Assembly (NCBI GenBank): GCA_049519415.1
Contig: JBEKQU010000005.1
Location: 37,504-101,503 of the forward strand
Reading direction: 5' to 3'
Length of the DNA: 64,000 nucleotides
Source: Spirochaetia bacterium
Lineage (GTDB): Bacteria; Spirochaetota; Spirochaetia; SZUA-6; Fen-1364
Below the pieces are notes generated by a model. The model saw nothing but the letters and a program-made list of their open reading frames with translations, did no database searches and was not told where the DNA came from. This document shows positions 8,147 through 62,616 of this stretch, piece by piece. Each line of letters starts with the position of its first letter. Position 1 is the stretch's first letter. The translations under genes and the position numbers were made by a program.

Positions 8147-8629
8147 TTACGGTTCTATGGCGCGGAGGAACGCGATGAATCGCGTCAGGTCTTGCTTGAC
8201 AACGGGATGGGCCGTGGTGAGCTTCTTGACGAGGAGGTCGAGCCTGTCCCAGTCGTACCCTGTTTCGAAGTAGTAACGCCGAAAGTGACGGAACTTCAGG
8301 AGCTCCCATAGGTTTCCATGATTCCCCTCGGAAACCGCTGGTATCCGCACCCCCTCGATGTGTATGGTCATTTTTTCAAGCAGCTCTGCGTGCCATCTTT
8401 GCCCAGAAAGGCTGTTTTCGAAGAACTGCGAGATGCGAAGAAACACGGTCTCCAGGCAGGTGTAGTAATTTTCCAGCAGGCCGGCGATGATGAGGGCTGC
8501 GTTCTCGGTTCTTCCCAGAACCTGAACATCATGTTTGAGCGCGGTGGCGAGGGACGCCTGGAGCTTATCCAAAGTTCGCTCGTTTTTCTCGATACCGGCT
8601 ATCAGCTCAGCGATCTTCGCTTCGTTCAT
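8147..8629 (-). CDS. HEPN-domain / nucleotidyltransferase substrate-binding family protein, putative toxin of an MNT-HEPN TA pair
   Basis: 160-aa helical protein immediately downstream of the minimal nucleotidyltransferase, overlapping it by 23 nt. It has an R/H-rich motif region (KFRHFRRYY). The call rests mainly on gene pairing. Confidence 0.5.
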   Translation of the reverse strand: MNEAKIAELIAGIEKNERTLDKLQASLATALKHDVQVLGRTENAALIIAGLLENYYTCLETVFLRISQFFENSLSGQRWHAELLEKMTIHIEGVRIPAVSEGNHGNLWELLKFRHFRRYYFETGYDWDRLDLLVKKLTTAHPVVKQDLTRFIAFLRAIEP

Positions 8630-8999
8630 GAACGAGCCTCCCTCGGCGCCTGATCCCGTCTGCCGTGTCAGGATCGACCCTTTCCAGCTCGATGATATCG
8701 ATGGGGAACGAGGTCATGCCCATGGCCTCACCGATTATAGCAAACCAATCCTCGACACGCGCGAGACCCTCGATGGCGATATCGATGTCCGAGATCTCCG
8801 AGAAGTGATCCGTGTCCACGAGCGATCCCCATTGCCAGATGCGGCGAGGATTGTATGTCGCCGCGATGTGAGTGATGATCATGTGCGCGTCCCTCTGGGC
8901 GGCTATGAGGCGGGTCGCCACTTTCACGTTTCTTTTCTCCGTCTTTTTCCTGAGGAAATCCCTGACTTTCACAAGATCGATCGTTTGTTCAGCACCCAC
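8607..8999 (-). CDS. minimal nucleotidyltransferase (MNT/MntA-like) antitoxin
   Basis: GS-x(n)-D-x-D nucleotidyltransferase signature (WGSLVDTDHFSEISDIDIAIEG). 130 aa, overlapping the HEPN partner. Confidence 0.65.
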   Translation of the reverse strand: MGAEQTIDLVKVRDFLRKKTEKRNVKVATRLIAAQRDAHMIITHIAATYNPRRIWQWGSLVDTDHFSEISDIDIAIEGLARVEDWFAIIGEAMGMTSFPIDIIELERVDPDTADGIRRRGRLVHERSEDR

Positions 9000-9062
9000 G
9001 TCTCAAGTGTATGAGATTGTGTACTCAAGGACAAGACTTGCCCCGTCCAACCGGTCTGTACT

Positions 9063-47531: not shown

Positions 47532-48576
47532 TCAGCCCAGAAGAGGCGGTCCCCTCCGGTGACGCTCCAGGCAGGCGATGATCTTGCAGATCTGAGTCGG
47601 ATCGACGATGACGGCGAGCACCGCCATTCTGCTTCCGCACCTTGGGCAGGCCATCATGTGCAGCTTGTGAACCTTGGCCGGCAGCCGCGCCCAGGCCTTA
47701 CTGCGCGAGAGCACGCCGAGCTGGCGGTGCAGTGGCCCGCCCTGGGCCTGGTCCTTCGGGGCATCGGGGAGCAGGGGATCTTCGGCCGCCTTCCTGCCGT
47801 AGCAGTTGGCGGGCGCGTGCGATCGGAGGGCAGGCCGGTCCTTCCAAGTTCCGCGACCCCAAGCCTCCCGCCGTTTGCTTCGCAACCGAAATGTCGCCAG
47901 GAGCGACGGCGCTGCCGGCCCAGGGAGGAATACAACCCGTAGCGGCGCACGAGGTGCTTTCCCCGAGGAGGGACGTGGAGGGTCAGCTGGGCGATGAAGC
48001 CCAGCGAGGAGTACCTGCGCTGCCTGCCCTTTTGAAGTACCCCGAGGGGGAGGAGGACCAGGTGACGGCGTCCTGCTGCTCGTCCCAGCGGATGCGCTGC
48101 AGGGAAAGCGGGGCACGCACGATGTACTGACACAGCGCCTCGCGCGGTTCCTGGTCCCAGATGCGAGCACCGCTCTCGATGGAGAACCCGGAGTGCTCCC
48201 GGCCGAGGAGCTTGCGGGCGAAGTCGGGATTCAGAAAGCCCTTCTGGAGGAATAGGGCGACCACGCTGCGGCGCCAGATCTCGGAGAGGCCATCGGTGGC
48301 CCCCAGGGGGATGAAGAAGAATCGGTCGTGGCGGTCGAAGCCGCCTTCCAGGACGATGCAGTGCCAGTGGGGATGCCACACGCCGAACTCGCCGAAGCTC
48401 TGGTGGCTGGAGACCATGGCGCAGCGCAGCGTCCTGCCGGCGGCCTGGCTGTAGACGCCCTGCATCATGCGGTAGACGAGCCTGCTTAACGGATGTAAAC
48501 GAAACGCACGTGACCGCCGAATGCAAGGAGGGAATGCTTTACCTGCATGTGCCAAAGGCAGAAAAGGCCAAGGCAA
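47532..48576 (-). mobile_element. IS91-family (rolling-circle, Y2) transposase relic, frameshifted
   Basis: Three consecutive minus-strand frames carry WHPHWHCIVLEGGF...RIRWDEQQDAVTW, then an Arg-rich bridge, then the C-terminal CPRCGSRMAVLAVIVDPTQICKIIACLERH. The N-terminal roughly 100 aa are absent. Confidence 0.6.
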
Positions 48577-48932
48577 AAGCGATAGACGTGAAGGTTGGCT
48601 GATGAAGGTTCAAGATTCAATTGGTGACGCTTTTTCATCCGATTGTGGCAGTCTCGTAAAATGGGCCCTTGAAACCGCTCCCGTGGGTCCGCTGTACTTT
48701 CTGGAACCTTTTCGATCATAGCAGAAGAGGGTGCAGGTCGATCCCGCCCCGGGGGATCTTCACACGCGCTGGACCAAAACTCTGTTTCACGCAATAATTG
48801 CGGCATGGCAAAGATGCGGAGAGGCGCAACAAAAGAGAAAGCCACGATGTCGCCAGCGCGTAGACGGAATTGCGGAAATGCGATGAGGACAGCCGCGGCC
48901 AGCAGGACGCACGGAAAGGAGCGGGCTCCAAA

Positions 48933-49478
48933 ATGAAAACAAATCTGCCGATTCTCGTCTCTTCCCTTGCCGCCCTGGCGCTGTTCGGCTGCGCGGGCGT
49001 TCCCCGAGGCCTAGGACCGCTGCCGCTCGTGGAGAGTGTTGATACCCAGAGGTATCTCGGCCGCTGGTACGAGATCGCCCGGTACACGCACAGCTTTGAG
49101 AGGTCCCTCGTCGGGGTCACCGCAGAATACAGCGTTCGCGGTGACGGCAGGATTCAGGTGATCAACAGCGGTTTCAGAAACAGCCTGGACGGACGGTACA
49201 CAGACGCGAAGGGTGTCGCATGGATTCCCGATCCGCGTCGGCCCGCGGCGCTGAAGGTGAGCTTCTTCTGGCCGTTCGCTGCGGACTACCTCATTTTTGG
49301 CCTCGACCGGGAGAACTACTCCTGGGCCCTGGTCGGCGACAACTCACGGGGCTATCTCTGGTTTCTGGCCCGGACGCCCGAGATCAGCGACGAGCTGTTT
49401 CAGAAAATGCAGCAGATAGCGCGGGACCAGGGCTACGACCTGTCGAAGCTGGACAAGGTTCCGCAGAAACCGAGGTAG
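48933..49478 (+). CDS. blc: bacterial lipocalin Blc (outer-membrane lipoprotein)
   Basis: Lipobox LFGCAG, the YLGRWYEIAR lipocalin motif and YLWFLARTP. Confidence 0.8.
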   Translation: MKTNLPILVSSLAALALFGCAGVPRGLGPLPLVESVDTQRYLGRWYEIARYTHSFERSLVGVTAEYSVRGDGRIQVINSGFRNSLDGRYTDAKGVAWIPDPRRPAALKVSFFWPFAADYLIFGLDRENYSWALVGDNSRGYLWFLARTPEISDELFQKMQQIARDQGYDLSKLDKVPQKPR

Positions 49479-49808
49479 ACGAGGCCGTTCGGGATACAAA
49501 GTGCTGGAACCTTCGAGATAATGCACGGAAGATCGCGACACGGCATGTCACGCGCGAGTCTTATTGCGCAGGATCAAGACTCGGCAGACGGCGCCAGTGG
49601 CGTAGAATTAGCACGCGCTATTCGATGAGATAGAGCATGTGCGCCGGTGCAGGTTGAACTCGGGGCAGGCAAATGAAGACCAAGTATCAGCCTGACTTCC
49701 CCAGCCGCCTGCGGACACCAGCAATGAGGACTTGGAGCTAATCGCCAACAACCTCAAGCGGCTCATTCCTTAACTCTTCGATGGCAAATAGTGCGCGGGA
49801 AAAGACAC

Positions 49809-49950
49809 GATGATGGAGGGCTTTCCTGCCATCGCGGGGGTCCTTATGATGGTCCTCCTCTGCTTCTATCGCCTCGACCGGTGGTTGTTCCGGAAGATCA
49901 TGGGCGAGTTCGAGGAGCGGAAGAAGCCTTTCGTGGCGGTGACGGAATGA
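49809..49950 (+). CDS. possible small membrane protein (~46 aa)
   Basis: ATG-initiated short ORF with a hydrophobic core (IAGVLMMVLLCFY). Below the ORF-track size cut-off. Confidence 0.2.
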
Positions 49951-49984
49951 TAGTGGAACAGCACTACTGAACGAAGGAGATGCA

Positions 49985-50959
49985 ATGGAAATAGAGATTC
50001 GTCCGGGCCCGAATGGCCTCGAGGGCGGCCAGCCCTGGCCAGCCGTGGCAGCCTTGCTGAAGAACGTGGAGAAGGCGAACTTCCCTACGGTGAAAGCACT
50101 GAAGCTCCTGCCGAGGCGCATGCTGGCGCGCATCATCCGCCCGATGATGGGTTCCGGGAACCGGGATATCGCCCGCGGTGTCCTCGTGACGGAGCGCTTC
50201 CACGTGGCGGGCCCGAATGGCCCAGTGCCTGTCCGCAGCTACCGTCCTGAGGGTCTGGTTTCTGGCCTGCCGGTCTTCGTCTATTACCACGGAGGTGGCT
50301 GGCTCGGTGGAACGGTGGATGTCGTCGAGAACGTCTGCAGGGCGGTGGCTGACTGCGCCCACTGTGTGGCCCTCAACGTCGACTACCGCCTGGCCCCCGA
50401 GCATCCCTTCCCTGCGGGTCTCGAGGACTGCCGGGCAGTGGCCGAATGGGCAGTCGCGCACGCGAAGAAGCTCGGCGGCGATCCCTCGAAAGTCTTCCTT
50501 GCAGGGGACTCTGCGGGGGGCAACCTGGCCACTGTCTGCACCCTGCTCGCGAAGGAGGCGAAGAGGCCGAAGTACAGGGGACAAGTTCTCCTGTATGCCG
50601 CGGTCGACCTTGGCCCCCCTGTCGGCGGACAAGGCGTGTCATGCAGCCCTCTCGGAGACATTGCTCCCAAATGGTACCTGAATGGGGACGAGAGGCTTGT
50701 GGACGACCCGCGGGTATCACCCGCCCGGGCCAAAGACCTTTCGGGTCTCCCTGCGGCCCTTGTCATCACCGCCGAGTTCTGCTTCGTCAGGGATCAGGGC
50801 GAGACCTACGCAAAGAAGCTTGCCGCGGCGGGTGTGCCCGTCAAGGCCATACGCTACAACGGGATGTGCCACGGCTTCCTCGACAATGTCGGCCTCTGGC
50901 CCGAGACCGACGCCATCATCGAGGACGTCGCGGCCTGGATCGGGGAGACCTGCAGATAG
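49985..50959 (+). CDS. alpha/beta hydrolase, HSL-family esterase/lipase
   Basis: HGGGW oxyanion motif, GDSAGG nucleophile elbow, and a DPxxD...HGF catalytic His region. Confidence 0.8.
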   Translation: MEIEIRPGPNGLEGGQPWPAVAALLKNVEKANFPTVKALKLLPRRMLARIIRPMMGSGNRDIARGVLVTERFHVAGPNGPVPVRSYRPEGLVSGLPVFVYYHGGGWLGGTVDVVENVCRAVADCAHCVALNVDYRLAPEHPFPAGLEDCRAVAEWAVAHAKKLGGDPSKVFLAGDSAGGNLATVCTLLAKEAKRPKYRGQVLLYAAVDLGPPVGGQGVSCSPLGDIAPKWYLNGDERLVDDPRVSPARAKDLSGLPAALVITAEFCFVRDQGETYAKKLAAAGVPVKAIRYNGMCHGFLDNVGLWPETDAIIEDVAAWIGETCR

Positions 50960-51235
50960 GCGGAACGGCTCACGGGTGTTGAGGGTCCTCAGGCCCTCCG
51001 CAAGGCCGGCCAGCCACGTCCCTGGGAAGCATCTTCGTCTCCATGAGCTGGATCCCCGCGATCGGCTGCGTTTTCTCCCTCACCCGCATCGCCTTTGTGG
51101 CTTGACGGTTCGAGGTTCCTATCGCATCCGATGGAAAATACTGACTAAATACGACCCCCGCTTCCGACAAAGGCGAATTCTCTTCGCGGCAGCCGACTAT
51201 CTCCAGCCACGCGGTCACGTCCTTTCGGGCGGACC

Positions 51236-51672
51236 TCACGTTTCGGCCCTGACTGCAAGATCGTCCACGATGATAAACTTCGGGCAGAGATCGCTGATAT
51301 CCCTGACGCTTCGCCACAATCCACTGCCCTCGTGCGTGCAGAAGGGCACGACCTTCATTCCTGAAAGATCGTGATTTTCCAGGAACGCGAATACTGCCAT
51401 CGGCATCGTCGCCCACCAGATAGGACAGCCGATAGAGATGACCATGTACGATACAAGGTCCGTGACGTCCTCCGCCAGCCGCGGCCGGACGTTTGCCCTC
51501 AGTTCCGTCCTCGCAACCTCGACCGCGGCATCGTAATCCTGTGGGTACGAGTCTACGGTCTCGATCCGAAAGAGGTCGCCGCCCGTGACAGCACGGATGT
51601 GCTCGGCGATAACCCTGGTGTTGCCGGAATGCGTGAAGTAACCAACGAGTGTGGACTCCTTCGCTATCCGCT
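51236..51672 (-). pseudogene. flavodoxin-family (Flavodoxin_4-like) gene lacking a canonical start codon
   Basis: The in-frame translation (ESTLVGYFTHSGNTRVIAEHI...VVPFCTHEGSGLWRS) is flavodoxin-like. There is no ATG/GTG/TTG between the upstream stop and the internal Met at 51445. Confidence 0.5.
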
Positions 51673-51710
51673 TTGTTTTCCCTCAGTTCCCTTGACGACC
51701 GGGCCACTGT

Positions 51711-52034
51711 TCAACGACCGGTCAGCCCATTCATCTGCGGCCGGCCGTTGTCGTCATAGTTGAAGCCGAACTTGGTGGCGATGACGACCCGGCCTCGGAA
51801 CGGCTGCAGGACTTCGCCCACCAGCTCTTCGTTGACGAATGGGCCATAGAGCTCCGCGGTGTCGAAAAGCGTCACGCCGCGATCCACTGCGGACCAGATC
51901 AGGGAGATCATCTCCTGCTTTTGCGCGGGCTGATCATGGCCCGGGATCAGGCCCATGCAGCCAAGGCATATGGCGCCACTTCCCATACTTCCAAGGTAAA
52001 AACCAGATCTGACATACCACGAGAAAGCAGCCAA
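51711..52034 (-). pseudogene. aldo/keto reductase N-terminal fragment
   Basis: GCMGL...AVDRGVTLFDTAELYGPFVNEELVGEVL...VVIATKFG is an AKR N-terminus that terminates after about 107 aa. Confidence 0.5.
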
Positions 52035-52131: not shown

Positions 52132-53034
52132 ATGAAATCCATCAATAGCGAAGACTTTCTCAACGTCCGCATCTTGGACAACTTCTACCAGACCTCTTCG
52201 TTCTTCCCCATGCCTGTCGTTTTAATCTGCACGATCGCGGAGACGGGTCAAATGAATCTCGGACCGTACTCACTCTGCTTCCCCTACACCGTGGCCGGGG
52301 GGAGCTACCAGATGGTCTTCAACTGCCGTGATAACAGCAACACTGGAATCAATTTGCGCCGTACTGGGTTCTGCACGCTGAACTTCATCCCCGACAATCG
52401 CCGCTACATGCGCAATTGCGTGATGCTGGGCTATCCCGGAGAGACGACGGAGGAGAAGATGCGGAACTCGATTTTCACGCTCCTGCCGTCCCGCCGCACC
52501 CAGGAAGAGCGGACAGTCGGGGTCGTCTACCCCGACGTTGTGGGGCAAGCACTTCAAGTCTTCGAGTGCCATCTGGATTCCTTCGAGATCAAAGAAGAGA
52601 TTCACTCCATGCGCTCCGTTCTCACGATTGACAAGGTGTTGCTCAAGGAACGTTGGCACAGGGTTCTCCTCGAGGGCCGCAAGCCCCGGTGGGCACGACG
52701 GGCAGAGTTCCCTCCGCTGCCCGTGGACTACGGCTTTCGCAACAACGCCCATTTCTGGTTCACGAAGCACAGGCCGCCCTACCGCGAGCCGATCCCGAAG
52801 AGCAAGGCGGTTTCCGTGGATTCGGTGATGTGGGGGATCACCCGCGGAGGCTTCGCAGAGGATTTCGAGTGGAAGCCCGAGGCAGCGGCCAGGCTGGTCA
52901 ACGTGCCTCGTGTCTTCCTGGGCATGGTGCTCAAGGGCATTGCCGAAGAAGCACGGCGGGAAGGGATAACGACAATCACGCCTGAGTTCCTGGATGCGGT
53001 TCGAGACAAACGCTCTCTGGAAAAGGGGCGGTAA
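52132..53034 (+). CDS. flavin reductase-like (FMN-binding) domain protein with C-terminal extension
   Basis: N-terminal FFPMPVVLICT...motif of flavin-reductase-like domain family. The C-terminal roughly 140 aa are uncharacterized. Confidence 0.5.
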   Translation: MKSINSEDFLNVRILDNFYQTSSFFPMPVVLICTIAETGQMNLGPYSLCFPYTVAGGSYQMVFNCRDNSNTGINLRRTGFCTLNFIPDNRRYMRNCVMLGYPGETTEEKMRNSIFTLLPSRRTQEERTVGVVYPDVVGQALQVFECHLDSFEIKEEIHSMRSVLTIDKVLLKERWHRVLLEGRKPRWARRAEFPPLPVDYGFRNNAHFWFTKHRPPYREPIPKSKAVSVDSVMWGITRGGFAEDFEWKPEAAARLVNVPRVFLGMVLKGIAEEARREGITTITPEFLDAVRDKRSLEKGR

Positions 53035-53168: not shown

Positions 53169-54407
53169 TCACTGTTCAAAATGAGTCTCATTTTTCGCAG
53201 CGTCGTCTTTGGGAAGTAGGCAATGGCTGCCTTGTCGAAGTGACCGCTGCCCTGACTTTAAGCGGAAGGATTTGTTGCGCACATCGATCCGCCGGCCACG
53301 CCACATAGCGCTGCCGCGGACCTTCGCCAGCCAAACAGAATGCGCGAAGATCGTATGGAAGAACGCAAGCGGCAGGGGGAAGAAAAGCGCAGTAAGAGGT
53401 CCAAAGCCCCCAATTCTTCGGAACATCCACCAGAGCTGGGCGGCGTACAGCGCATAGAGGCCGATTGCAGCTTTGCCGAACGCCACACGAGCCCCGCCTT
53501 CGGTCAGAGAAACGATTCCCAGGCAGCCGGTGATGACGCTCGTGGTGGCGCCCGTGAGCCACGCGCCCATCAGCGCCCGCGGCAGCGGCGGTGAGTACCC
53601 CGCCCCGGTTGCAATGTTTTTGTTCCAGCCCTCGACCATGCTTCGGATGCCGTCGGGATACATGCGGAAGTGCACAGCGCTCCGGCCGCCGAGGCACGCA
53701 ACGGGCAGGCCACGGTGGCGGGCCACTTCTCCAAGGGCGAAGTCCTCAACCACCTGGTCGCGCACTGTGGCGTGGCCGCCGCAGGAGAAGTAATCGTCCC
53801 GAGCCACGGCGATACAGGGGCCAAAGGTGCCGGCCGCGCGAAGCCGGTCGCCCAGAGGAGTAAAGGCGCCGAGGCTGCCCATCATCACGACATTGCAGAA
53901 AGCGGACAACCGTTCATATGCCCGGGGCACCTCATGGTATGGCTGCACGGACACCAGACCACCCATCTCCGCATGCGCGGCCAGCAGGCGCGCTATGGCT
54001 CCATCCTCCAGACGAACGTCGGCATCCAGGAATACCAGCAGGTCGCCCGTCGCCTCCCGCGCGCCGGTCCAGCAGGCCCAGGTCTTGCCGACCCAGCCCT
54101 CGGGCCTTGCCGGGGCCGAGATGACCCGTGCTCCGAGCCTGCGGGCCAGGGCTGCGGTGCCGTCCGTGGAGTCGTCATCCACCACGAGAATCTCGTCGGC
54201 GCGCCGGCTCTGCCGTGCCAGCGACTCCATCAGCGGAGTGAGACGCCGCTCTTCGTCACGGGCAGGAACGATCACCGAGACTCGGCGCGACTGGCACATG
54301 GTATTGATGCGCACGGCCGGACACCGCGGCACCCGCCAGAGGCAGAATATCCCCGGCAGCCATAACGCGCCGGTGTACGCAAGCAGTGCAATCTCGAGCG
54401 CGGTCAT
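53169..54407 (-). CDS. crtQ: family-2 glycosyltransferase, CrtQ-like (diaponeurosporenoate glycosyltransferase family)
   Basis: VSVIVPARDEE...DDDSTDGT...DAD...SVQPYH matches the CrtQ pattern. C-terminal TM segments. Confidence 0.7.
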   Translation of the reverse strand: MTALEIALLAYTGALWLPGIFCLWRVPRCPAVRINTMCQSRRVSVIVPARDEERRLTPLMESLARQSRRADEILVVDDDSTDGTAALARRLGARVISAPARPEGWVGKTWACWTGAREATGDLLVFLDADVRLEDGAIARLLAAHAEMGGLVSVQPYHEVPRAYERLSAFCNVVMMGSLGAFTPLGDRLRAAGTFGPCIAVARDDYFSCGGHATVRDQVVEDFALGEVARHRGLPVACLGGRSAVHFRMYPDGIRSMVEGWNKNIATGAGYSPPLPRALMGAWLTGATTSVITGCLGIVSLTEGGARVAFGKAAIGLYALYAAQLWWMFRRIGGFGPLTALFFPLPLAFFHTIFAHSVWLAKVRGSAMWRGRRIDVRNKSFRLKSGQRSLRQGSHCLLPKDDAAKNETHFEQ

Positions 54408-55504
54408 CGCGTCCTCTCATAGCGGAATGTCAGCACCGTGAGGAGAAGAAAGCCGCCGAAAAAGGCCGCCAGGGCACCAAGGTCCGTGCTCATTTCAAGC
54501 GGCCCCCGACCGAGCACCATAGAAGAGAAGACAGCGCGAGAAAAGTACAGCACTGGATTGACGACCGCAAGATCGACGAATGGAGGGGGAATGAGCTCCA
54601 CTGGCACGAACAGCCCCGAGGTGAACAGGAACAGCATGGCGAGAATCTGCGCAACCGCGACAGCCGCTTCCACCGTGGACAGCACCCCCGCGAGAAAGAA
54701 ACCTGCCGCGGCAAAGGCCGCAGTGCCCAGAAGGAAGACGGGCAGGAATGATAGGGGCGCGGCGGCGAAGCGCAGGCCAAAAACCAGCGCCCCGGTTGCC
54801 GCGAGCAGTCCGATCTGCACGAGACCGATCACAACGCGCTGCAGCACGAGACCCAGCGTGAAATGCACCCGCCGCAGGGGCGTACAGGCGAAGCGCTTCA
54901 GGAATCCTTGCCGCCGGTATCCGATGATGATCTGAGGAATGGCGAAAAAGCAGTTCAGCATCACCGAAAGGCCGAGGGTTCCGGCAAAGAGAAAGTAGAG
55001 GTACGTGAGCCGACGGCCGCCGACCGCCAGCACCTCCAGACGGTAGTCAAAGAGCGACGGACCAGCGATGAATCGCCGCACAGCCTCCACGCTCGCCTGA
55101 TCAAGGACCGAGGAGAGCACCATGCCGAAAGGCTTGTCCTTTTCCGTAACCAGGACTGTATACGCTCCCTCGCCCGTAGCGCGAGTGACAAATGCGTACA
55201 GCTTGCCCTCGGCGAGCAGCCGGCGGCCCGAGGCTTCGTCCATCCAGGCGATCTGAATGATGGAGCTCGCTTCCAGCGCGTGACGCATGACTCCCGCGGA
55301 GGTCTCGTTGGAGAATTCCAAGGCTTGTTCAATGCCGACGCGGAAGGAGCGGGGACGGAACTCGCTCTCGCCGAACAGAAAACCGAAAAGCACGAACAGG
55401 AACGCCGGAAAAAGCAGCATCCAGAACAGCCCCGCCGGCGAGCGGGCCTCCTCCAGCAGCAGTGACCCCGTCATCTTCCCGACGACCCGCCACCCGCCCG
55501 CCAT
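54404..55504 (-). CDS. ABC-2 family transporter permease
   Basis: N-terminal periplasmic segment followed by 6 TM segments. Directly downstream of an ABC ATPase on the same strand. Confidence 0.7.
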   Translation of the reverse strand: MAGGWRVVGKMTGSLLLEEARSPAGLFWMLLFPAFLFVLFGFLFGESEFRPRSFRVGIEQALEFSNETSAGVMRHALEASSIIQIAWMDEASGRRLLAEGKLYAFVTRATGEGAYTVLVTEKDKPFGMVLSSVLDQASVEAVRRFIAGPSLFDYRLEVLAVGGRRLTYLYFLFAGTLGLSVMLNCFFAIPQIIIGYRRQGFLKRFACTPLRRVHFTLGLVLQRVVIGLVQIGLLAATGALVFGLRFAAAPLSFLPVFLLGTAAFAAAGFFLAGVLSTVEAAVAVAQILAMLFLFTSGLFVPVELIPPPFVDLAVVNPVLYFSRAVFSSMVLGRGPLEMSTDLGALAAFFGGFLLLTVLTFRYERTR

Positions 55505-56451
55505 CAGCGCGCCTCCGTCGCGGGCTCTTCGCTGGGCCACGCGCGACCCGTGCGAAAAAGGTACACGTCTTCGAGGGTCGGTGCGTGCACATCAAGCTCG
55601 CGCACCGATGTGCCGGCAGCCCGGGCAATCTCGAAGATCTGGTGGAGGTCGTCCTCGAACCGGACGCTTGCCACGCGCGCGCTGGCCCCGCTGACCACGG
55701 CGTTCGGAAATGTTGCCGCGATCCTTTCCGTCAAGCCGGGTGGCTCGGCTTCGAAGGTGAAAATGATCAGACCGGCAAGGCCTGAGGCCCCCACCAAGGC
55801 GGCAGGCGAGTCAAGAGCGGCGATCGTTCCCCGGTAGAGGATGGCCACCCGATCGGACAAACGCTCCGCTTCCTCCAGGTAGTGGGTGGTGAGCACCACC
55901 GTCTTGCCCCGGGCGCGCAGGTCCTGAATGATGCCCCACACCTCCCGGCGCACGGCAGGGTCAAGACCCGTGGTCGGCTCGTCGAGGAACACGAGATCGG
56001 GGTCGTTGACGATCGCCAGGGCAACGAGAAGGCGCTTGCGCTGCCCGCCGGACAGTTCGCGCACCAGCGCACGGCGGGGCGGGTCCAGGGATACACGGTC
56101 GAGCGCCTCCCGAGGTTCCAGGCCCCGGGAGTAGAATGATCTGAAGAGGGCAAGCACCTCCATGGGCCTAAGGTTCTGCATTACCTCGGCCTCCTGAAGC
56201 TGCACGCCGATTGATTCGCGCACGCGCAGGTCGCTCGGTCGGCCGCCCAGCACCCGAAAGGTGCCGCCATCGTGCCTCCGGATTCCTTCAAGAATCTCCA
56301 TGATTGTCGTCTTTCCGGACCCATTGGGTCCGACGATCGTGAAGATCTCCCCCCGGGGGACCGTGAAACTCACACCGCGCAGCGCCGGCAGGCCCTTGTA
56401 GGACTTCCGAAGGTCGTGTACCTCAAGGGCGAAGCTGTTCGAGCTATCCAT
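55504..56451 (-). CDS. ABC transporter ATP-binding protein
   Basis: Walker A GPNGSGKTT, ABC signature LSGGQRKR, Walker B LVFLDEPTTGLD and H-loop TTHYLEE. Confidence 0.85.
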   Translation of the reverse strand: MDSSNSFALEVHDLRKSYKGLPALRGVSFTVPRGEIFTIVGPNGSGKTTIMEILEGIRRHDGGTFRVLGGRPSDLRVRESIGVQLQEAEVMQNLRPMEVLALFRSFYSRGLEPREALDRVSLDPPRRALVRELSGGQRKRLLVALAIVNDPDLVFLDEPTTGLDPAVRREVWGIIQDLRARGKTVVLTTHYLEEAERLSDRVAILYRGTIAALDSPAALVGASGLAGLIIFTFEAEPPGLTERIAATFPNAVVSGASARVASVRFEDDLHQIFEIARAAGTSVRELDVHAPTLEDVYLFRTGRAWPSEEPATEAR

Positions 56452-56520: not shown

Positions 56521-58401
56521 TTGCGAATGCAGCGCGGCGACTATGACGTCATCGTCGTTGGAGCGGGGGTCGGCGGCCTGACTGCGGCGAGCCTGCTTGC
56601 GAAAAGCGGCCTTGCCGTCCTGGTTGTCGACAGGAACTACATGCCCGGCGGCGCCCTCGGCTCCTTTCGGCGCGACGGGATAACTCACGACCTGGGCGCA
56701 GCCATGCTCTTCGGCTTTGGAGAGCACGGGTTCAGCCCGCACCGGTTCCTCATGAACGAGTTGGAGGAGCCGGTGACCGTGATCCGTCACCGTGCCCTGT
56801 ACCGGCTCAACTACGGCGAGGACCCCATTGTGTTCTGGCCGGAGATGGATCGCTACCTCGGCGAGCTTGCCCGGGTCTTTCCAGCCGAACGGGCCGAGCT
56901 GGCCGCTTTCTATCAAGCAATTGCCGAGCTTTTCGAGAACGTCATCCGGGCCGACCCCGTGTACGTGTCTCCCTCGGAGATGCGGCCTCAGGATCTTCGC
57001 GGGCAGTTCTTCTCCCGGCCGCTGCAGCAGCTGGCCACCCTCCGGTTGCTCTCCACCTCTGCGGAGCGCCTTATCCGCCGGCACGTACGTTCCGAGCGGG
57101 CGATCAGGTTCTTCGACAAGCTTACCTCAACCTACTGCTACACCACCATGGCCGAGACGCCGGCAATACTTGCGGCAACGATGTTCGTCGACAATCACGC
57201 CGGCGGCAGCTATTATCCCGTCGGGTCGCCTGCCATCCTGGCGGGCAGGCTCGAGCGCTCAATCGAGCGCCACGGCGGGACCTTCCGCTATGAGACTGAA
57301 GTGACAGGCATACTCTTCGACGACGGCGGCCGGGTCAGGGGCGTATACACCGCAGGCGGAGAGGAAATCACTGCCCCCCAGGTCGTGTATGCGGGGGCGA
57401 TCCATCCACTCTTCCGTAAGCTGCTGCCTGCGGCGCGCGTGAGGGCCCGGGAGCGCGCCCGGATCGAATCGCTGGTCCTGACGCACCCCAGCATCGTGCT
57501 CTACGGTCAAGTGAAAGCGGACGCCGTGCCCAACGGCACCTTTCCTGTGGAGATGTTCGTAGACAACAAGACGACCCTCGATGAGAGCGAGGTCACGCTG
57601 TACCTGTCGTCGCTGGAGGAGCCGAACCTTGCCCCCGAGGGCACATACGTCTTTACGCTTATTGGCCCCTCGTTCTCCAACTGGCCCGCCCCGGGCGACA
57701 CCGCCTACCAGGGTCCGGCCTACCTCGAGCGCAAAGAGGCCGAGGCCCGGCGGATGCTCGCCATTCTCGAGCGTCGTATGCCGGGGTTTTCCAGAGGGAT
57801 CGTGCGCTGGGAGATCGGAACCCCTTCCACTATTGAGCGCTACCTCGGCAAGCCGGGAGGCACAGTGGCTGGGCCCAAGCAGGCAATCGGACAGGAGCTG
57901 CTGCGCCGTCCCCATGCCAGGACCCGGTGGCCGGGGCTGTACCTTGCAGGAGAATCGACGGTGATGGGCACGGGCACGCCGGCGGTGACTGTCTCAGGCA
58001 TCAGCGCTGCCGATGTTGCGCTGCGCGACCGGGGAATGCCGGAATACCGGTGGCGCCCGGGGCAACGCGATTTTGTCACCGTGGTTGAAGGACCGGTGCC
58101 ACGCCTGCCTGCGCCAAAAACGGCACCGGGCACCGCCTCATTCTGCGGGTGGTGCGAGATCGCAACGTGCCGGGCTGCGTGCCCCTCCCGCATCGATATC
58201 CGAGGCGTGCTCCGGCGCATCGAAATGGAGAACTTCGAAGGTGCTCGGCGCAGGCTCGCTGAAACAGGTGGCAGGCCGCTGCCCTGTCCCGGCTGTGCGG
58301 GACACCCATGCGAGCAGGCCTGCCAGCGCACCAGGTGGGCAGGAAATCCGGTTCCCATCGTGGAAAACCTTGTCTGGGCGGACAGGCAGACTCCACCGTG
58401 A
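56521..58401 (+). CDS. phytoene-desaturase-family FAD oxidoreductase (CrtI/CrtN/CrtP-like) with Cys-rich C-terminal extension
   Basis: N-terminal YDVIVVGAGVGGLTAA FAD site and a CrtI-family body. The C-terminal roughly 100 aa carry CxxCx4Cx3CP and CPGCx3PCx3C motifs. Confidence 0.75.
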   Translation: MRMQRGDYDVIVVGAGVGGLTAASLLAKSGLAVLVVDRNYMPGGALGSFRRDGITHDLGAAMLFGFGEHGFSPHRFLMNELEEPVTVIRHRALYRLNYGEDPIVFWPEMDRYLGELARVFPAERAELAAFYQAIAELFENVIRADPVYVSPSEMRPQDLRGQFFSRPLQQLATLRLLSTSAERLIRRHVRSERAIRFFDKLTSTYCYTTMAETPAILAATMFVDNHAGGSYYPVGSPAILAGRLERSIERHGGTFRYETEVTGILFDDGGRVRGVYTAGGEEITAPQVVYAGAIHPLFRKLLPAARVRARERARIESLVLTHPSIVLYGQVKADAVPNGTFPVEMFVDNKTTLDESEVTLYLSSLEEPNLAPEGTYVFTLIGPSFSNWPAPGDTAYQGPAYLERKEAEARRMLAILERRMPGFSRGIVRWEIGTPSTIERYLGKPGGTVAGPKQAIGQELLRRPHARTRWPGLYLAGESTVMGTGTPAVTVSGISAADVALRDRGMPEYRWRPGQRDFVTVVEGPVPRLPAPKTAPGTASFCGWCEIATCRAACPSRIDIRGVLRRIEMENFEGARRRLAETGGRPLPCPGCAGHPCEQACQRTRWAGNPVPIVENLVWADRQTPP

Positions 58402-58883
58402 CCACCGCTCAATTCCCCGTCGGCTGGAACATCCTGCTTAACGCTGGAGCCTGGTTTGTGATACACGTCGGAGCCTCATTCTTCACGAGCCGGCTTCCCC
58501 TGGACTCGTTTGATACAGCGGGCTGGCTCTACCGTACTAGGAGCTGGGAGCTCGGCGGCAGGCTCTATGAACGGGTCTTCTTCATCCGTGGATGGAAATG
58601 GATGCTGCCGGACGGTGCGGCGGCTTTCCGATCAGGGTTTCGCAAACGGCATATGACCGGGCGTTCACCGGAGTACTGTCGGACCTTTGCGAGGGAGACC
58701 TGCCGGGCGGAACTCTCTCACTGGCTCGTATTCATGCTCGTGCCGCTGTTCTTTCTCTGGGATCCATGGTGGGTGGCCTGGCCGATGGTGCCCTACGCAG
58801 TTGCAGTGAACGCTCCCTGCATCATGGCACAGCGATACAATCGGCCACGCCTCGCTGCGCTGGCTGCGCGCGGCGCTATCTGA
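58399..58883 (+). CDS. crtO: glycosyl-4,4'-diaponeurosporenoate acyltransferase
   Basis: Strong match to CrtO conserved blocks: FIRGWKWMLPDG, RAELSHW and QRYNRPRL. GTG start overlapping the upstream stop. Confidence 0.8.
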
Positions 58884-58930: not shown

Positions 58931-59458
58931 ATGAAGTCCTGGATTGCATCGGTGGGAATCTTGGCTATGGCCGCTCACGCCATGGGTCAAGGCGACGCGC
59001 TCCCAATTTTCCCGAAATCGTTGGGAAAGAACCTGAATGGCCGCGCACTGTCACTGCCGGACGATTTCGCAGGCCGTGCGAACCTCGTATTCATCGCCTT
59101 CGAGATGCGCCAACAACAGGAAGTCGACACCTGTAAGTCATTCACACAGGGGATGCGTCAGGCCCATGAATGGCTGCACGCCTATGAGCTTCCCACGATC
59201 GGCAGAGGCTACGGCCTCATACGCGGTTTCATCGACGGCGGGATGAGATCCGGCATTCCGGACAGCGAGACCCGGGCGTCCACTATTACCCTCTATCTCG
59301 ACGTCGATGCGTTTGCACGCGCGCTCGGAATCGAATCCACCGGTACCATCACCATCCTGCTGGTGAAATCCTCGGGAGAGATCATGGCCCATGCTTCCGG
59401 ACCCTATTCCAAGACAGCGGCAGCTCCACTGATCTCCGCGCTGGATGCCATGAAATGA
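58931..59458 (+). CDS. secreted hypothetical protein
   Basis: Signal peptide (ILAMAAHAMGQG). No catalytic motif. Confidence 0.45.
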   Translation: MKSWIASVGILAMAAHAMGQGDALPIFPKSLGKNLNGRALSLPDDFAGRANLVFIAFEMRQQQEVDTCKSFTQGMRQAHEWLHAYELPTIGRGYGLIRGFIDGGMRSGIPDSETRASTITLYLDVDAFARALGIESTGTITILLVKSSGEIMAHASGPYSKTAAAPLISALDAMK

Positions 59459-59556: not shown

Positions 59557-60650
59557 TCAGCGCAAGTCCTTGATCACTTTATCGGCGGCCAGTTTGCCCG
59601 TCAGAATCGAGACTGGCAGACCAGAGGGACTGAATGACCACTGCCCTGCCTGGCAGACGTCGGGTATCGGCGTAAGGATCGACTTCGCGACCGAAGGAAG
59701 GTCGGAAATCGCCGGCAGGGGCTTGTTTGTCAAGGCCCAACTGGTGATTGCGCCGTCGGAATTGCCTGTTCTCTCTTCCAGCGTAAGGGGGCCCGAAGTG
59801 AAAGCGTCGATGGTCGATCCCCTGGGTCCGGGGAAAATGGTGGAGCCCAGCACCTCGATGATGCAGTTGCTGCACAGCTGCTGGTACTCCTCGTGCCAAC
59901 CCATCTCCCGGATATGCCTGTGGAGCGAATGCTCCATCAGCGTGCTGATGGCAAAACCCGTTTTCCCCGGGGGGCCAAGGCGGGATCATGCAAGGCCGGG
60001 CAGGAGATTTCATAGCTCGTAAGCTCGAAGAACCGCCTCGTCCAGGCTAGATGAGCCGGGCCTTGTCCTGTGTGTACCCGCCCTTCGCGGGATCGTCGCC
60101 GGTGAGCTCGCGAAGGTCAAGGGCTGACAGCCCAATTGTGTAAGTCGTGCAGAAAAGATGCGCGGTGGCTCTTTCCGAGAAGCAGCTTTTGTCGATGTCC
60201 AGCGCAAGGTACAGTGTGAAAACCGAGTCTCCTCCCCTTTTGTCGAGAAGCGCAGCCTGCCTCTCTTCCGCGCTCCTCCGCACCTTCCCGTTCGGAATCG
60301 ATCCTGCATCGAGGATGCGGTAGAACGTCTTCTGGTCCGCTGCCCAGACGAGCTTCCGCCAGGAGCACTCCCGGCCACGCGCGTCGAGATGCGTCCGTCT
60401 TCCCGGGGCGACGCCGACGATGCCGCCCCTCGGGTAGCGGTAGTCGAGATAGAGGCCGAAATAGCTTAACGCAAAATGGGCCGGGGTCTTCTTGAAGAAA
60501 TGCTGGTCGATGATGTCGATCAGCGCCTGACTGCCGGATAGTTTCGCAAGGTGCTCGTCGACGGGGAGAAGCAGCTTGCGGACCTTCGGCATGGTGAGGA
60601 TGTAGCGCAGCAGCCATGGCAGCATCGTCCTGATGATATCGTGGGGATCC
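59557..60650 (-). pseudogene. second phytoene-desaturase-family oxidoreductase, frameshifted and N-terminally truncated
   Basis: The C-terminal CrtI-like part is split between two frames (59557-59937 and 60047-60650). No FAD-binding N-terminus. Confidence 0.5.
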
Positions 60651-60758
60651 TTCCTGGGCTCTAGGAAGAGCGGATTGTCGATCCCATAGAATACATCCAT
60701 GTAGCCGATGACCCGGCGCACCTCGTCGATCTGTCGTCCAGAGCTATCGAGGGACTGG

Positions 60759-61412
60759 TTACCTCGTCCGCCGCGTGAGGAGCAGGGAACGCAGCGCCGC
60801 CACCGCGATACCGACGACGACGACCGCAGCGGCGACCACGGCAACGGTCCATACCTTGGGTGCAACGCCAAACCGGTTCCACCCAGCTTTCACGAGCAGC
60901 GCCGTCACGTTGGCGATCATGGCGACGGTGATCCATCCCAGGTAAACGCTGAAGGGAATGCGGGCGAACCACCTCTCTGCGGGACTCGCAGAAGCCCTTC
61001 CCATGCCCAGCCGAAGGTAGATGCCGATGAGGCAGGTGAGCAGGGCGAGCATGGCAAGGAGGGAGAAGCCGACCTGCCGCCAGTGCCAGAGTAGCAGCCA
61101 TCCGATGTTCGCCGCGGAGGAGAGGACCATCAGCCACCCGATCCTCTCCACGGACGCCGGCGCTTCCCTCCGGGTGGAAAACAACCCTCGCGACTGGGCC
61201 ACGGTGAAAAGAAGCAGGAAGATGTAGATCACCCCCCAGATGGAGAAAGTAAGGCCTGATGGAACGAAAAGATTTGGAATGGCATCTGAGAGAACTCCGG
61301 TCTGGCTGCCGTTGAGCCCGATGGTTGAGGCGAAGGTGTTCACGACGAGAGTGGCCAGGAAGACCACGATGTTGACGGCCTGCAGGACTCGCGCCGATTG
61401 CCTGGTCTCCAT
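60759..61412 (-). CDS. tspO: TspO/MBR (CrtK-like) tryptophan-rich membrane protein
   Basis: LNGSQTGVLSDAIPNLFVPSGLTFSIWGVIYIFLL matches the TspO signature. Five TM segments. Confidence 0.65.
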   Translation of the reverse strand: METRQSARVLQAVNIVVFLATLVVNTFASTIGLNGSQTGVLSDAIPNLFVPSGLTFSIWGVIYIFLLLFTVAQSRGLFSTRREAPASVERIGWLMVLSSAANIGWLLLWHWRQVGFSLLAMLALLTCLIGIYLRLGMGRASASPAERWFARIPFSVYLGWITVAMIANVTALLVKAGWNRFGVAPKVWTVAVVAAAVVVVGIAVAALRSLLLTRRTR

Positions 61413-61548: not shown

Positions 61549-62616
61549 ATGGCACACGCGCTACGAAAGCTCACCCACCCACTCCTCTTTCAGGGCAGCA
61601 CAGCGAAAAAGCGATATTTCGAAGGGTGGTACTTTAAACAGGTGTCGGCGGATGGCAGATCTGTTTTTGCGCTCATACCCGGAATCTCCCTGTCCCCACG
61701 GGGTTCGCATTCGTTCGTGCAGGTGATCGACGGAACCACGGGTGCCACACGCTGGTTCTCCTACCCGCTCGACGCGTTTCGCTGGTCACGGAACCGGTTC
61801 GAGATCCAGGTGGGCGAGAACCGGTTCAGCGATACGTCGGCGGATGTCCAGCTCACTGACGGTGCAGGTTCGATCGAGGCCCACCTGCGCTACCATGGCC
61901 TGACCCCCCTGCCGTTTTCCCTTGGAAGTCCCGGCGTCATGGGGCGCTACACGTATGCGCCCTTTATGGAATGCTACCATGCAATTGGCAGCCTGGATCA
62001 CCGGGTTGAGGGCAGCGTCACGGTTGACGGAAGCAGGTTCGACTTCTCGGATGGTCGTGGATATATCGAGAAAGACTGGGGGACTTCTTTTCCTCGCGCC
62101 TGGATCTGGGCGCAGTCAAACAGCTTCGAAGAGCCGGGCACGTCGTTCGTGTTCTCACTTGCGCGAATCCCATGGCTCGGGCGTTTCTTTCCGGGATTCT
62201 TCTCCCTGCTTCTCGAGCGAGGACGGCTTCATCGAATGGCAACGTACACAGGGGCGCGCATCGTGGCAGCGCGGTTGAGCGGACGGGAGCTGGCGCTGGA
62301 CATCAGCGACCGCGAATCGGTCATCTTGCTGAGGGCAGAGCGCTCACACGAAGGAGTGCTCCTGGCACCAGAGCAGGGAGCCATGGATCGACGCATTGGG
62401 GAGAGCATCGACGCGCGCCTGCATGTCACCATGACAGACCTATCCGGGAAGGTGCTCTTCAACGGGTCGGGATCGGCGGCAGGCTTGGAGGTCGTCGGGG
62501 ACATGTCTATACTCGGAGTGCTGACAGAGGGCGCTCTCAATTCGCAGGCGCAGAATCCGGACTCTGCTCCCACCTCGGGCATGCCAGGCAAGACAAGCGA
62601 GCCGCCGTTTCCATGA
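61549..62616 (+). CDS. tocopherol-cyclase-family protein
   Basis: RYFEGWYFKQV motif and 'IEKDWG...WIWAQSN' resemble the VTE1/SXD1 cyclase family. Confidence 0.6.
   Translation: MAHALRKLTHPLLFQGSTAKKRYFEGWYFKQVSADGRSVFALIPGISLSPRGSHSFVQVIDGTTGATRWFSYPLDAFRWSRNRFEIQVGENRFSDTSADVQLTDGAGSIEAHLRYHGLTPLPFSLGSPGVMGRYTYAPFMECYHAIGSLDHRVEGSVTVDGSRFDFSDGRGYIEKDWGTSFPRAWIWAQSNSFEEPGTSFVFSLARIPWLGRFFPGFFSLLLERGRLHRMATYTGARIVAARLSGRELALDISDRESVILLRAERSHEGVLLAPEQGAMDRRIGESIDARLHVTMTDLSGKVLFNGSGSAAGLEVVGDMSILGVLTEGALNSQAQNPDSAPTSGMPGKTSEPPFP

Follow-up and report, generated by a model that had tools for sequence, protein, structure and literature searches.

A CrtISO-like FAD oxidoreductase fused to a predicted C-terminal di-[4Fe-4S] domain in a Spirochaetia bacterium

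Enzymes of the CrtI superfamily are textbook single-cofactor flavoproteins that deliver their electrons to O2 or quinones. What, then, would such an enzyme do with a cysteine-rich tail of the kind that holds iron-sulfur (Fe-S) clusters? The question is raised by a gene, here called ox1, that lies in a stretch of 64,000 nt of contig JBEKQU010000005.1 (Spirochaetia bacterium, assembly GCA_049519415.1). This whole stretch is referred to as the window, and all positions are window coordinates. The product of ox1 is a CrtISO-like flavin adenine dinucleotide (FAD) oxidoreductase with a C-terminal domain predicted to bind two [4Fe-4S] clusters. From its sequence, this tail is very probably a cluster-binding redox relay. 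The answer proposed for the whole enzyme, which we regard as probable on the sequence data, is that electrons from a ferredoxin-type donor would enter through the two clusters, pass to FAD and be used for C=C saturation or reduced-flavin isomerization. The gene and its parts are as follows.

56521 to 58401, plus strand: ox1, whole gene, CrtISO-like FAD oxidoreductase fused to a predicted C-terminal di-[4Fe-4S] domain.
56542 to 56724, plus strand: N-terminal Rossmann FAD-binding fold, amino acids 8-68, DVIVVGAGVGGL...PGG (Pfam NAD_binding_8, E = 1.2e-13).
56572 to 58020, plus strand: amine-oxidase/CrtI-superfamily body, amino acids 18-500 (PF01593 Amino_oxidase, E = 8e-20).
58120 to 58359, plus strand: Fer4_20 helical di-cluster domain of the GltD/DPD/NfnB type, amino acids 534-613 (PF14691).
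58144 to 58185, plus strand: cysteine motif 1, CGWCEIATCRAACP, amino acids 542-555 (C542, C545, C550, C554), spacing CX2CX4CX3CP.
58285 to 58323, plus strand: cysteine motif 2, CPGCAGHPCEQAC, amino acids 589-601 (C589, C592, C597, C601), spacing CX2CX4CX3C.

ox1 is one uninterrupted open reading frame (ORF) of 626 amino acids, which starts with TTG at 56521 and ends with TGA at 58399-58401. Public gene calls begin two codons downstream, at the ATG at 56527, and give a protein of 624 amino acids (P0001, 100% identical), for which NCBI uses the label 'FAD-dependent oxidoreductase [Spirochaetia bacterium]' and JGI that of 'prolycopene isomerase'. A sequence-only reading had described a CrtI-type oxidoreductase with a cysteine-rich C-terminal module, and had named two ways in which this could fail: absence of the tail from orthologues, or a stop codon or sequencing error between the modules. 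The description is confirmed, with a FAD body (amino acids 8-505) followed by a tail that holds eight of the nine cysteines. In the window the reading frame continues from body into tail without a stop codon or frameshift, and four independently assembled contigs (JGI and Logan samples) encode the identical protein. The tail is present in the orthologues, and each of its eight cysteines is kept in 115–116 of 117 full-length homologues with identities down to ~44%. There is practically no chance that the tail is an artefact of stop read-through, assembly error or chance cysteine-rich sequence, given the four identical contigs, the more than 100 homologues with the same architecture and conserved cysteines, a Pfam match above threshold and a tail that is confidently folded in the structural model described below. 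Read-through and sequencing error in particular were ruled out by the homologues, the four contigs and the cysteine conservation. On the other side stands a single homologue locus, L048, in which the tail is a separate small ORF. There the main tblastn match stops at query residue 575, and a separate ORF of 72 amino acids with a motif-1-type CQWCEDAPCLTVCP lies ~190 bp upstream of the match; this split is itself probably due to a frameshift or assembly error.

The body shows the full-length flavin amine-oxidase/CrtI fold together with the GxGxxG dinucleotide motif region, and it is thus a member of the CrtI superfamily. Within the Rossmann region, G14, P42, G43 and G44 are invariant across the homologues. 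The closest solved relatives by both sequence and fold are 4REP (carotenoid desaturase), 3KA7 and 4DGK (CrtI), with Foldseek E-values of 2.6e-28 for 4REP and 1e-20 for 4DGK. Alignments to solved structures end at ~530 columns, and no CrtI/Fer4_20 fusion was found among these structures. The top curated NCBIfam model is TIGR02730, carotenoid isomerase, which scores 253.6 bits against a cut-off of 586.9. The CrtD model (164 bits) also stays below its cut-off, as does TIGR02734 crtI_fam (128.3 bits; cut-off 238.1). By these scores, ox1 is placed outside all of the named CrtI, CrtD and CrtISO equivalogs. The sequence-only reading is thus supported as to the superfamily and refined as to the enzyme: the closest model is CrtISO rather than CrtI proper, and every equivalog cut-off is missed. 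The most conserved motif of the body is KLTSTYCYTT (amino acids 200-209; 57118-57147), in which K200, T202, S203, Y205 and T208 are invariant and C206 is found in 90 of the 117 homologues. By analogy with Cys671 in DPD, this motif may be an active-site or proton-donor region.

The tail was identified as a Fer4_20 domain. PF14691 scores 29.1 bits on the whole protein and 34.6 bits (E = 1.8e-8) on the tail alone, both above the gathering score of 25.8. Eight of the nine cysteines of ox1 fall within a 60-residue stretch, and both motifs noticed in the sequence-only reading are present exactly. The match of the tail alone to PF14691 puts them far beyond chance. In addition, the tail corresponds to the N-terminal portion of GltD-like NCBIfam models, and it can be aligned to the di-cluster domains of DPD, NfnB, GltD and HylB-type subunits (8OH5 and 9BOV, which were deposited as formate dehydrogenase or molybdopterin oxidoreductase). 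Seven of the eight cysteines share columns with those of NfnB and GltD, the exception being the second cysteine of motif 2, which is offset because of the tighter spacing in ox1, CX2CX4CX3C versus CX4CX5CX3C. An AlphaFold2 model of ox1 built with 71 homologues has a mean predicted local distance difference test score (pLDDT) of 92.3 and a predicted template modelling score (pTM) of 0.93. The tail blocks are all-helical with pLDDT 95-98, and the confidence of the model indicates that the tail is docked on the body in a fixed position.

The idea that the tail resembles an Fe-S or ferredoxin-like module was borne out in its first part only. A classical 2x[4Fe-4S] ferredoxin was considered and rejected: the spacing is CX2CX4CX3C(P) and not CX2CX2CX3CP, the model is all-helical, and no Fer4 family besides Fer4_20 was detected in ox1 by Pfam at E-values up to 1. 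The tail is instead a helical di-cluster domain of the GltD/DPD/NfnB type. The suggestion that it may act as an internal electron-transfer domain gains support from the match, as Fer4_20 is a recognized Fe-S electron-transfer domain. ox1 ends 13 residues past the Fer4_20 match, and the FAD/NAD(P)H domain that follows the di-cluster domain in GltD-like proteins is absent.

The fusion is common in genomes. In a scan of one genome per species, relatives of ox1 were found in 398 species genomes, so that the tail, which had been called non-standard for the family, is indeed absent from characterized CrtI enzymes but is widespread among species representatives. For the best 80 loci the taxa include Spirochaetota, Chloroflexota, Bacteroidales, Clostridia, Coriobacteriia, Thermotogales, Caldisericia, Marinimicrobia and others, with cultured Clostridia (Clostridium celatum, C. 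disporicum and Acetobacterium bakii) among the hosts. As judged from the taxon names, the hosts belong essentially to anaerobic lineages. Nearly all of the best 120 homologues (44-100% identity) carry PF14691. When 1.84 billion cluster representatives were searched exhaustively, ~25-30 tail-bearing clusters at 50% identity were obtained, and tail-less relatives of ~500 amino acids start at ~36% identity. No published description of a CrtI-like/Fer4_20 architecture was found in targeted full-text searches, most subscription journals being outside their coverage. ox1 thus represents two known modules in an undescribed combination (where 'undescribed' means absence of evidence in the literature) within a sizeable uncharacterized family.

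The relatives of ox1 form a graded series of architectures on the same body. Those of ~960-980 amino acids (P0127, P0133, P0150 and P0167) consist of the body, Fer4_20 and a complete Pyr_redox_2 domain that covers profile positions 2-291 of 291. In these proteins, an entire GltD/NfnB-like module, NAD(P)H-FAD-2x[4Fe-4S], is predicted to be fused at the C-terminus. In relatives of ~780-830 amino acids (P0082, P0086 and others), Fer4_20 and the FAD domain are still present but the NAD(P)H domain is missing: their matches to NfnB (E = 9.4e-36) and to GltD (E = 2.6e-29) span chain residues ~35-239 and then ~422-461, with a jump over the NAD(P)H domain. The forms of ~620-650 amino acids, including ox1, retain the two-cluster domain alone. 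Short and long forms are 37-45% identical.

A further step in this series is seen in the cysteines themselves. Among 75 species-level homologues, all eight cysteines are present in 56, and one systematic pattern of loss is found in 18. In the latter, C542, C545, C550 and C601 are always retained, whereas C554 (through a 4-residue deletion), C589, C592 and sometimes C597 are lost. By analogy with known di-cluster proteins, the clusters would be cross-ligated, with the first three cysteines of motif 1 and the last of motif 2 holding one cluster and the remaining four holding the other. The observed losses coincide with this prediction, and the 18 homologues appear for this reason to have lost one whole cluster (loci L040, L042, L050, L051, L056-L059, L066, L069, L071, L072, L079-L081 and L083-L085). 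Fer4_20 scores 20.1 bits on the one-cluster form of L050, which is under the gathering score. At the sequence level, the loss pattern provides evolutionary evidence that the tail cysteines are cluster ligands. The non-cysteine ligand of the N-terminal clusters of DPD sits on nFeS2 (PMC8097209). From this statement, the alignment numbering of DPD, the loss pattern and the structure of DPD, we infer that the retained set (C542, C545, C550, C601) would correspond to the partner-facing nFeS1 and the dispensable set to nFeS2, on the side of the GltD-type FAD. This assignment fits the graded series, in which the entry module would have been trimmed from the outside, the cluster nearest to the CrtISO-like flavin being lost last.

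The direction in which electrons would move through this arrangement is suggested by several characterized systems. GltD-like modules pass reducing equivalents of NAD(P)H to a second domain through clusters at ~-400 mV, and in DPD the path runs from FAD to nFeS2, nFeS1 and the partner domain (PMC8097209). CRTI, in which FAD is the sole redox cofactor, uses O2 or quinones for desaturation, and its best acceptors lie at ~0 to +100 mV (PMC3382138). Because of this difference, electrons from desaturation would be unable to reduce NAD(P)+ or GltD-type clusters. The long forms would therefore have to run reductively, and the short homologues most likely perform the same chemistry, fed by a donor from outside. 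Electron input to the flavin is likewise what the graded series points to, with a complete NAD(P)H/FAD GltD-like module at its upper end. A precedent for a shortened form exists in the clostridial PydAc, a DPD without the FAD/NADPH domain that runs on reduced ferredoxin (PMC7332683). As for the catalytic end, CRTISO performs a non-redox isomerization with a strict need for reduced FAD (PMC3382138).

Retinol saturase, a C=C reductase, also falls in the CRTISO clade, and we know of no identified electron donor for it. On balance, electrons in ox1 probably flow inward, and the enzyme would then be a saturase or a reduced-flavin isomerase and not a desaturase. According to the proposed mechanism, an external low-potential donor, most likely the ferredoxin/flavodoxin pool of the cell, would reduce the outer cluster, with C554, C589, C592 and C597 as its putative ligands. 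The electron would then move to the inner cluster (predicted ligands C542, C545, C550 and C601) and on to FAD. Reduced FAD would saturate a C=C bond of a hydrophobic lipid of the polyene or isoprenoid type, as in retinol saturase, or it would drive a reduced-flavin-dependent cis-trans isomerization, as in CRTISO. The lipid product would probably be glycosylated, acylated and exported by a GT2, a CrtO-type acyltransferase and an ABC-2 transporter, respectively. The general pool is the presumed source of the donor because no ferredoxin gene recurs near members of the family. Metal binding, the direction of electron flow, the identity of the FAD-proximal cluster, the donor and the substrate are all predictions of this scheme.

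Among the known systems, CRTISO/CrtH and retinol saturase share the fold and the FAD-binding N-terminus of ox1. The need of CRTISO chemistry for reduced FAD would explain a built-in electron supply in ox1 (PMC3382138). Characterized members differ from ox1 in being FAD-only enzymes without an Fe-S domain (PMC3382138), ox1 scores below the equivalog cut-off, and its hosts are anaerobic heterotrophs without carotenoid backbone genes nearby. The GltD-like modules (glutamate synthase beta subunit, the N-terminal region of DPD, NfnB/SudA and AegA) contain the same Fer4_20 domain as the ox1 tail, and in the longer relatives of ox1 the whole module is found, its domains arranged in the same order. 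The function proposed for the tail, delivery of electrons to a second domain, is the one that defines this class (PMC8097209). However, ox1 itself lacks the class-defining FAD/NAD(P)H domain, and its module is C-terminal to the catalytic partner. The partners of GltD-like modules that are given in a 2021 review do not include a CrtI-superfamily flavoprotein (PMC8097209).

Two enzymes of anaerobes provide functional parallels. PydAc of Clostridium chromiireducens, a dihydropyrimidine dehydrogenase, is an anaerobe-specific variant of a C=C-reducing Fe-S flavoenzyme; it has lost the NAD(P)H/FAD entry domain and is fed by reduced ferredoxin (PMC7332683). The forms of ~625 amino acids stand to those of ~960 amino acids in the ox1 family as PydAc stands to DPD. 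The catalytic domain of PydAc, however, is a flavin mononucleotide barrel of the dihydroorotate dehydrogenase type that acts on another substrate, and ferredoxin dependence in the ox1 family is a prediction. IsrA, a putative isoprene reductase of Acetobacterium wieringae, has Fer4_20 and Pyr_redox_2 on a proposed isoprenoid C=C reductase, but its N-terminal ~270 amino acids are without a predicted domain, it carries extra ferredoxin-type clusters, and its operon includes HypA/HypB (PMC10134865). IsrA was considered as a member of the ox1 family and rejected, as it has no CrtI-like domain (PMC10134865); it is an analogue and not a homologue of the body.

The genes around ox1 give some indication of the substrate. 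The neighbouring features in the window are the following.

52132 to 53034, plus strand: protein of 300 amino acids with a C-terminal PCP_red match of 28.2 bits, below threshold (32.5).
53169 to 54407, minus strand: membrane glycosyltransferase of the GT2/GT21 type (Pfam Glycos_transf_2, Glyco_transf_21), divergent from ox1.
54404 to 55504, minus strand: ABC-2 type permease (PF12698, PF01061).
55504 to 56451, minus strand: ABC transporter ATPase (PF00005), with 75 bp between its start and the ATG of ox1, which is on the other strand.
58398 to 58883, plus strand: CrtO-type membrane acyltransferase of 161 amino acids (PF18927, E = 1.8e-31, 109 bits).
58931 to 59458, plus strand: ORF of 175 amino acids downstream of the CrtO-like gene, without a Pfam or NCBIfam match.
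59563 to 60730, minus strand: decayed copy of ox2, a tail-less CrtI-like flavoprotein (tblastn with the intact ox2 of L050).
60759 to 61412, minus strand: TspO-like membrane protein of 217 amino acids, with homologues named translocator protein, benzodiazepine receptor or tryptophan-rich sensory protein.
61549 to 62616, plus strand: tocopherol-cyclase-like protein (PF14249, E = 4.9e-17).

The called start of the CrtO-type gene, GTG at 58398, overlaps the stop of ox1 (GTGA), which suggests translational coupling of the two genes. A homologue of the 175-amino-acid ORF adjoins an ox1 homologue at just one other locus, and the 300-amino-acid protein, which adjoins the GT2, is not recurrent elsewhere. 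In the decayed ox2, L050 residues 125-348 and 300-524 align in two frames and the N-terminal FAD-binding ~124 amino acids are missing. The TspO-like protein, which has no match in Pfam or NCBIfam, is ~50 amino acids shorter than most of its homologues (217 versus ~265), and its gene is probably 3'-truncated. The tocopherol-cyclase-like protein could act in the same lipid pathway as a hydratase- or cyclase-type enzyme; its gene stands here in a non-phototrophic anaerobe. A glycyl-radical enzyme and a RACo-type activase are also encoded in the window, consistent with an anaerobe. Gene remnants were seen at ~47980-51960, comprising fragments of a Y2_Tnp transposase (161 amino acids), Flavodoxin_4 (69 amino acids) and Aldo_ket_red (81 amino acids). 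These remnants and the ox2 pseudogene suggest that the neighbourhood has been rearranged and is in decay. Scans for promoters and terminators around ox1 gave counts at chance level. Unrelated to ox1, a toxin-antitoxin pair of HepT-like and nucleotidyltransferase (MNT-type) proteins lies at ~8150-9000 on the minus strand, and a second HepT-like/MNT-type pair is found ~2-3 kb past the 3' end of the window (L001 19665-20475).

Neighbours were surveyed at 84 homologue loci by profile searches of six-frame ORFs. A GT2 of the type seen in the window lies within a few kb at 16 of the 84 loci, in several phyla. The CrtO-like gene stands beside homologues at 12, always on the same strand, while SDR genes (16 loci, mainly spirochaetes) and ABC ATPases (17 loci) also recur. 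A TspO-like gene is directly upstream of the ox1 homologue at four loci (L050, L051, L057 and L083). The tocopherol-cyclase-like gene lies beside ox1 homologues at four loci in three phyla by record titles (Spirochaetota, Coriobacteriaceae and Oscillospiraceae); these include L009, L037 (Coriobacteriaceae) and L080 (Oscillospiraceae). In metagenome-assembled genomes of Coriobacteriia, the gene order is ox1 homologue, PlsY-type acyltransferase, GT2. The tidiest form of the neighbourhood is L050 (Pygmaiobacter), where genes for a TspO-like protein, the ox1 homologue, ox2 (529 amino acids, tail-less), a GT2, a CrtO-like acyltransferase and an alpha/beta-hydrolase are co-directional. For the GT2 of L050, which is the orthologue of the one in the window, the closest models are HpnB (109 bits) and CruG (78 bits), both under their cut-offs. 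The window carries rearranged and partly decayed counterparts of the L050 set.

An intact ox2 adjoins ox1 homologues at 10 loci, all with one-cluster forms: 10 of 18 one-cluster loci have it, compared with 0 of 56 two-cluster loci (Fisher p = 6e-8, not corrected for phylogeny). The two-cluster ox1 beside a dead ox2 in the window is an unusual combination. Taken together, the recurrent neighbours suggest an uncharacterized glycolipid pathway in which a hydrophobic lipid would be modified, glycosylated, acylated and exported. The context resembles clusters for carotenoid glycoside esters, without sign of a carotenoid backbone. That the substrate of ox1 is a lipid that is subsequently glycosylated and acylated has about an even chance of being right.

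The nearest known counterpart of this context is the C30 carotenoid gene set of the staphyloxanthin type (CrtN, CrtP, CrtQ and CrtO). L050 likewise combines a pair of CrtI-family flavoproteins with a membrane GT2 and a PF18927 acyltransferase, and in the window PF18927 and a membrane GT2 are found beside a CrtI-family enzyme with the parts rearranged. The sets differ in that no synthase of the CrtM/HpnCD type is near ox1, that one of the ox-family flavoproteins has predicted Fe-S clusters, and that TspO-like, tocopherol-cyclase-like, PlsY-like and SDR partners are added in different ox1 lineages. CrtP, moreover, needs O2, whereas the hosts of ox1 are anaerobes.

This likeness bears on the most serious rival to an inward flow of electrons, namely that ox1 is a desaturase of the CrtI/CrtN type whose clusters serve as an electron exit to a soluble acceptor in anaerobes without O2 or quinones. 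Characterized CrtI desaturases need an external acceptor, O2 or quinones (PMC3382138), the family is found mainly in lineages named as anaerobes, many of them plausibly without quinones as far as taxon names tell, and the neighbourhood is like the staphyloxanthin-type set of desaturase, CrtQ-like GT2 and CrtO acyltransferase. We nevertheless consider a desaturase unlikely. The transfer would be strongly uphill, from a reaction that calls for acceptors at 0 to +100 mV (PMC3382138) to clusters near -400 mV (PMC8097209), the longest relatives hold a complete NAD(P)H module although NAD(P)+ is an infeasible acceptor for C-C desaturation, and the isomerase model outscores the desaturase models on the body. 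The isomerase score, together with the JGI label and the CrtO-type, CruG/HpnB-like and TspO-like neighbours, might in turn be taken to mean that ox1 does act as a prolycopene isomerase (CrtISO/CrtH) in carotenoid synthesis. This appears very improbable, since 253.6 bits is far under the equivalog cut-off, the 64-kb window holds neither a phytoene or squalene synthase nor any other gene for a carotenoid backbone, the hosts, Clostridium and Acetobacterium among them, are non-phototrophic anaerobes, and prolycopene comes from the PDS/ZDS route of plants and cyanobacteria (PMC3382138).

A different objection is that the tail might carry no catalytic electrons and act as an O2 or redox sensor, or in dimerization or partner docking. 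The clusters of GltD are also required for subunit assembly of glutamate synthase (PMC8097209), one subfamily of ox1 manages with a single cluster, and that subfamily co-occurs with ox2. However, the series leading up to a complete NAD(P)H-FAD-cluster chain on the same body is a signature of electron transfer, and every characterized Fer4_20 domain is a redox relay (PMC8097209), so that a purely structural or regulatory tail is improbable, less probable than a desaturase and somewhat more probable than a prolycopene isomerase. Ferredoxin-type input to a saturase or reduced-flavin isomerase is thus preferred, and the points that weigh against it should be stated together. Nfn-type modules can operate in reverse, so that the inward direction is probable rather than certain. 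The assignment of cysteines to clusters is drawn by analogy with DPD and ferredoxins and from the loss pattern, with the DPD ligand numbering partly provisional, and the position of the inner cluster next to the flavin and the cluster-flavin spacing are assumptions within the proposal. An ORF with CX2CX2CX3CP lies within 5 kb at only two of the 84 loci, which makes the donor a guess in the lack of a dedicated ferredoxin gene. Conserved neighbours are missing from about half of the homologue loci. No squalene/phytoene synthase (SQS_PSY) or polyprenyl synthase was found among the called genes of the window, and a dehydrosqualene or squalene synthase is absent from both the window and the recurrent neighbour clusters of the 84 loci. 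Finally, with ox2 decayed, the pathway in the window may be partly defunct.

To our knowledge, the source of reduced flavin in the isomerase/saturase branch of the superfamily is poorly understood. The ox1 family offers a series on one and the same body, with the full NAD(P)H-FAD-2x[4Fe-4S] chain at one end and a single cluster at the other, and thereby testable enzymes for this question. Both modules are individually well known, and their combination is what appears to be new; it adds a CrtI-superfamily flavoprotein as a partner class for GltD-like electron-input modules. The label 'prolycopene isomerase' on genes of this family is unsupported by the model scores. In a wider and tentative reading, the family would form a hitherto unrecognized class of anaerobe enzymes that saturate or isomerize lipid C=C bonds and are wired by Fe-S clusters, bacterial counterparts of RetSat/CRTISO that act in an undescribed acylated glycolipid pathway. 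The long forms would take electrons from NAD(P)H via the fused GltD module and the short forms from ferredoxin via two clusters or one, and ox1, a second CrtI-like enzyme, the TspO-like protein, the GT2 and the CrtO-type acyltransferase might together make the acylated glycolipid. Such a pathway would represent a possible, unexplored route of lipid modification across many anaerobic phyla, including cultured species of Clostridium and Acetobacterium.

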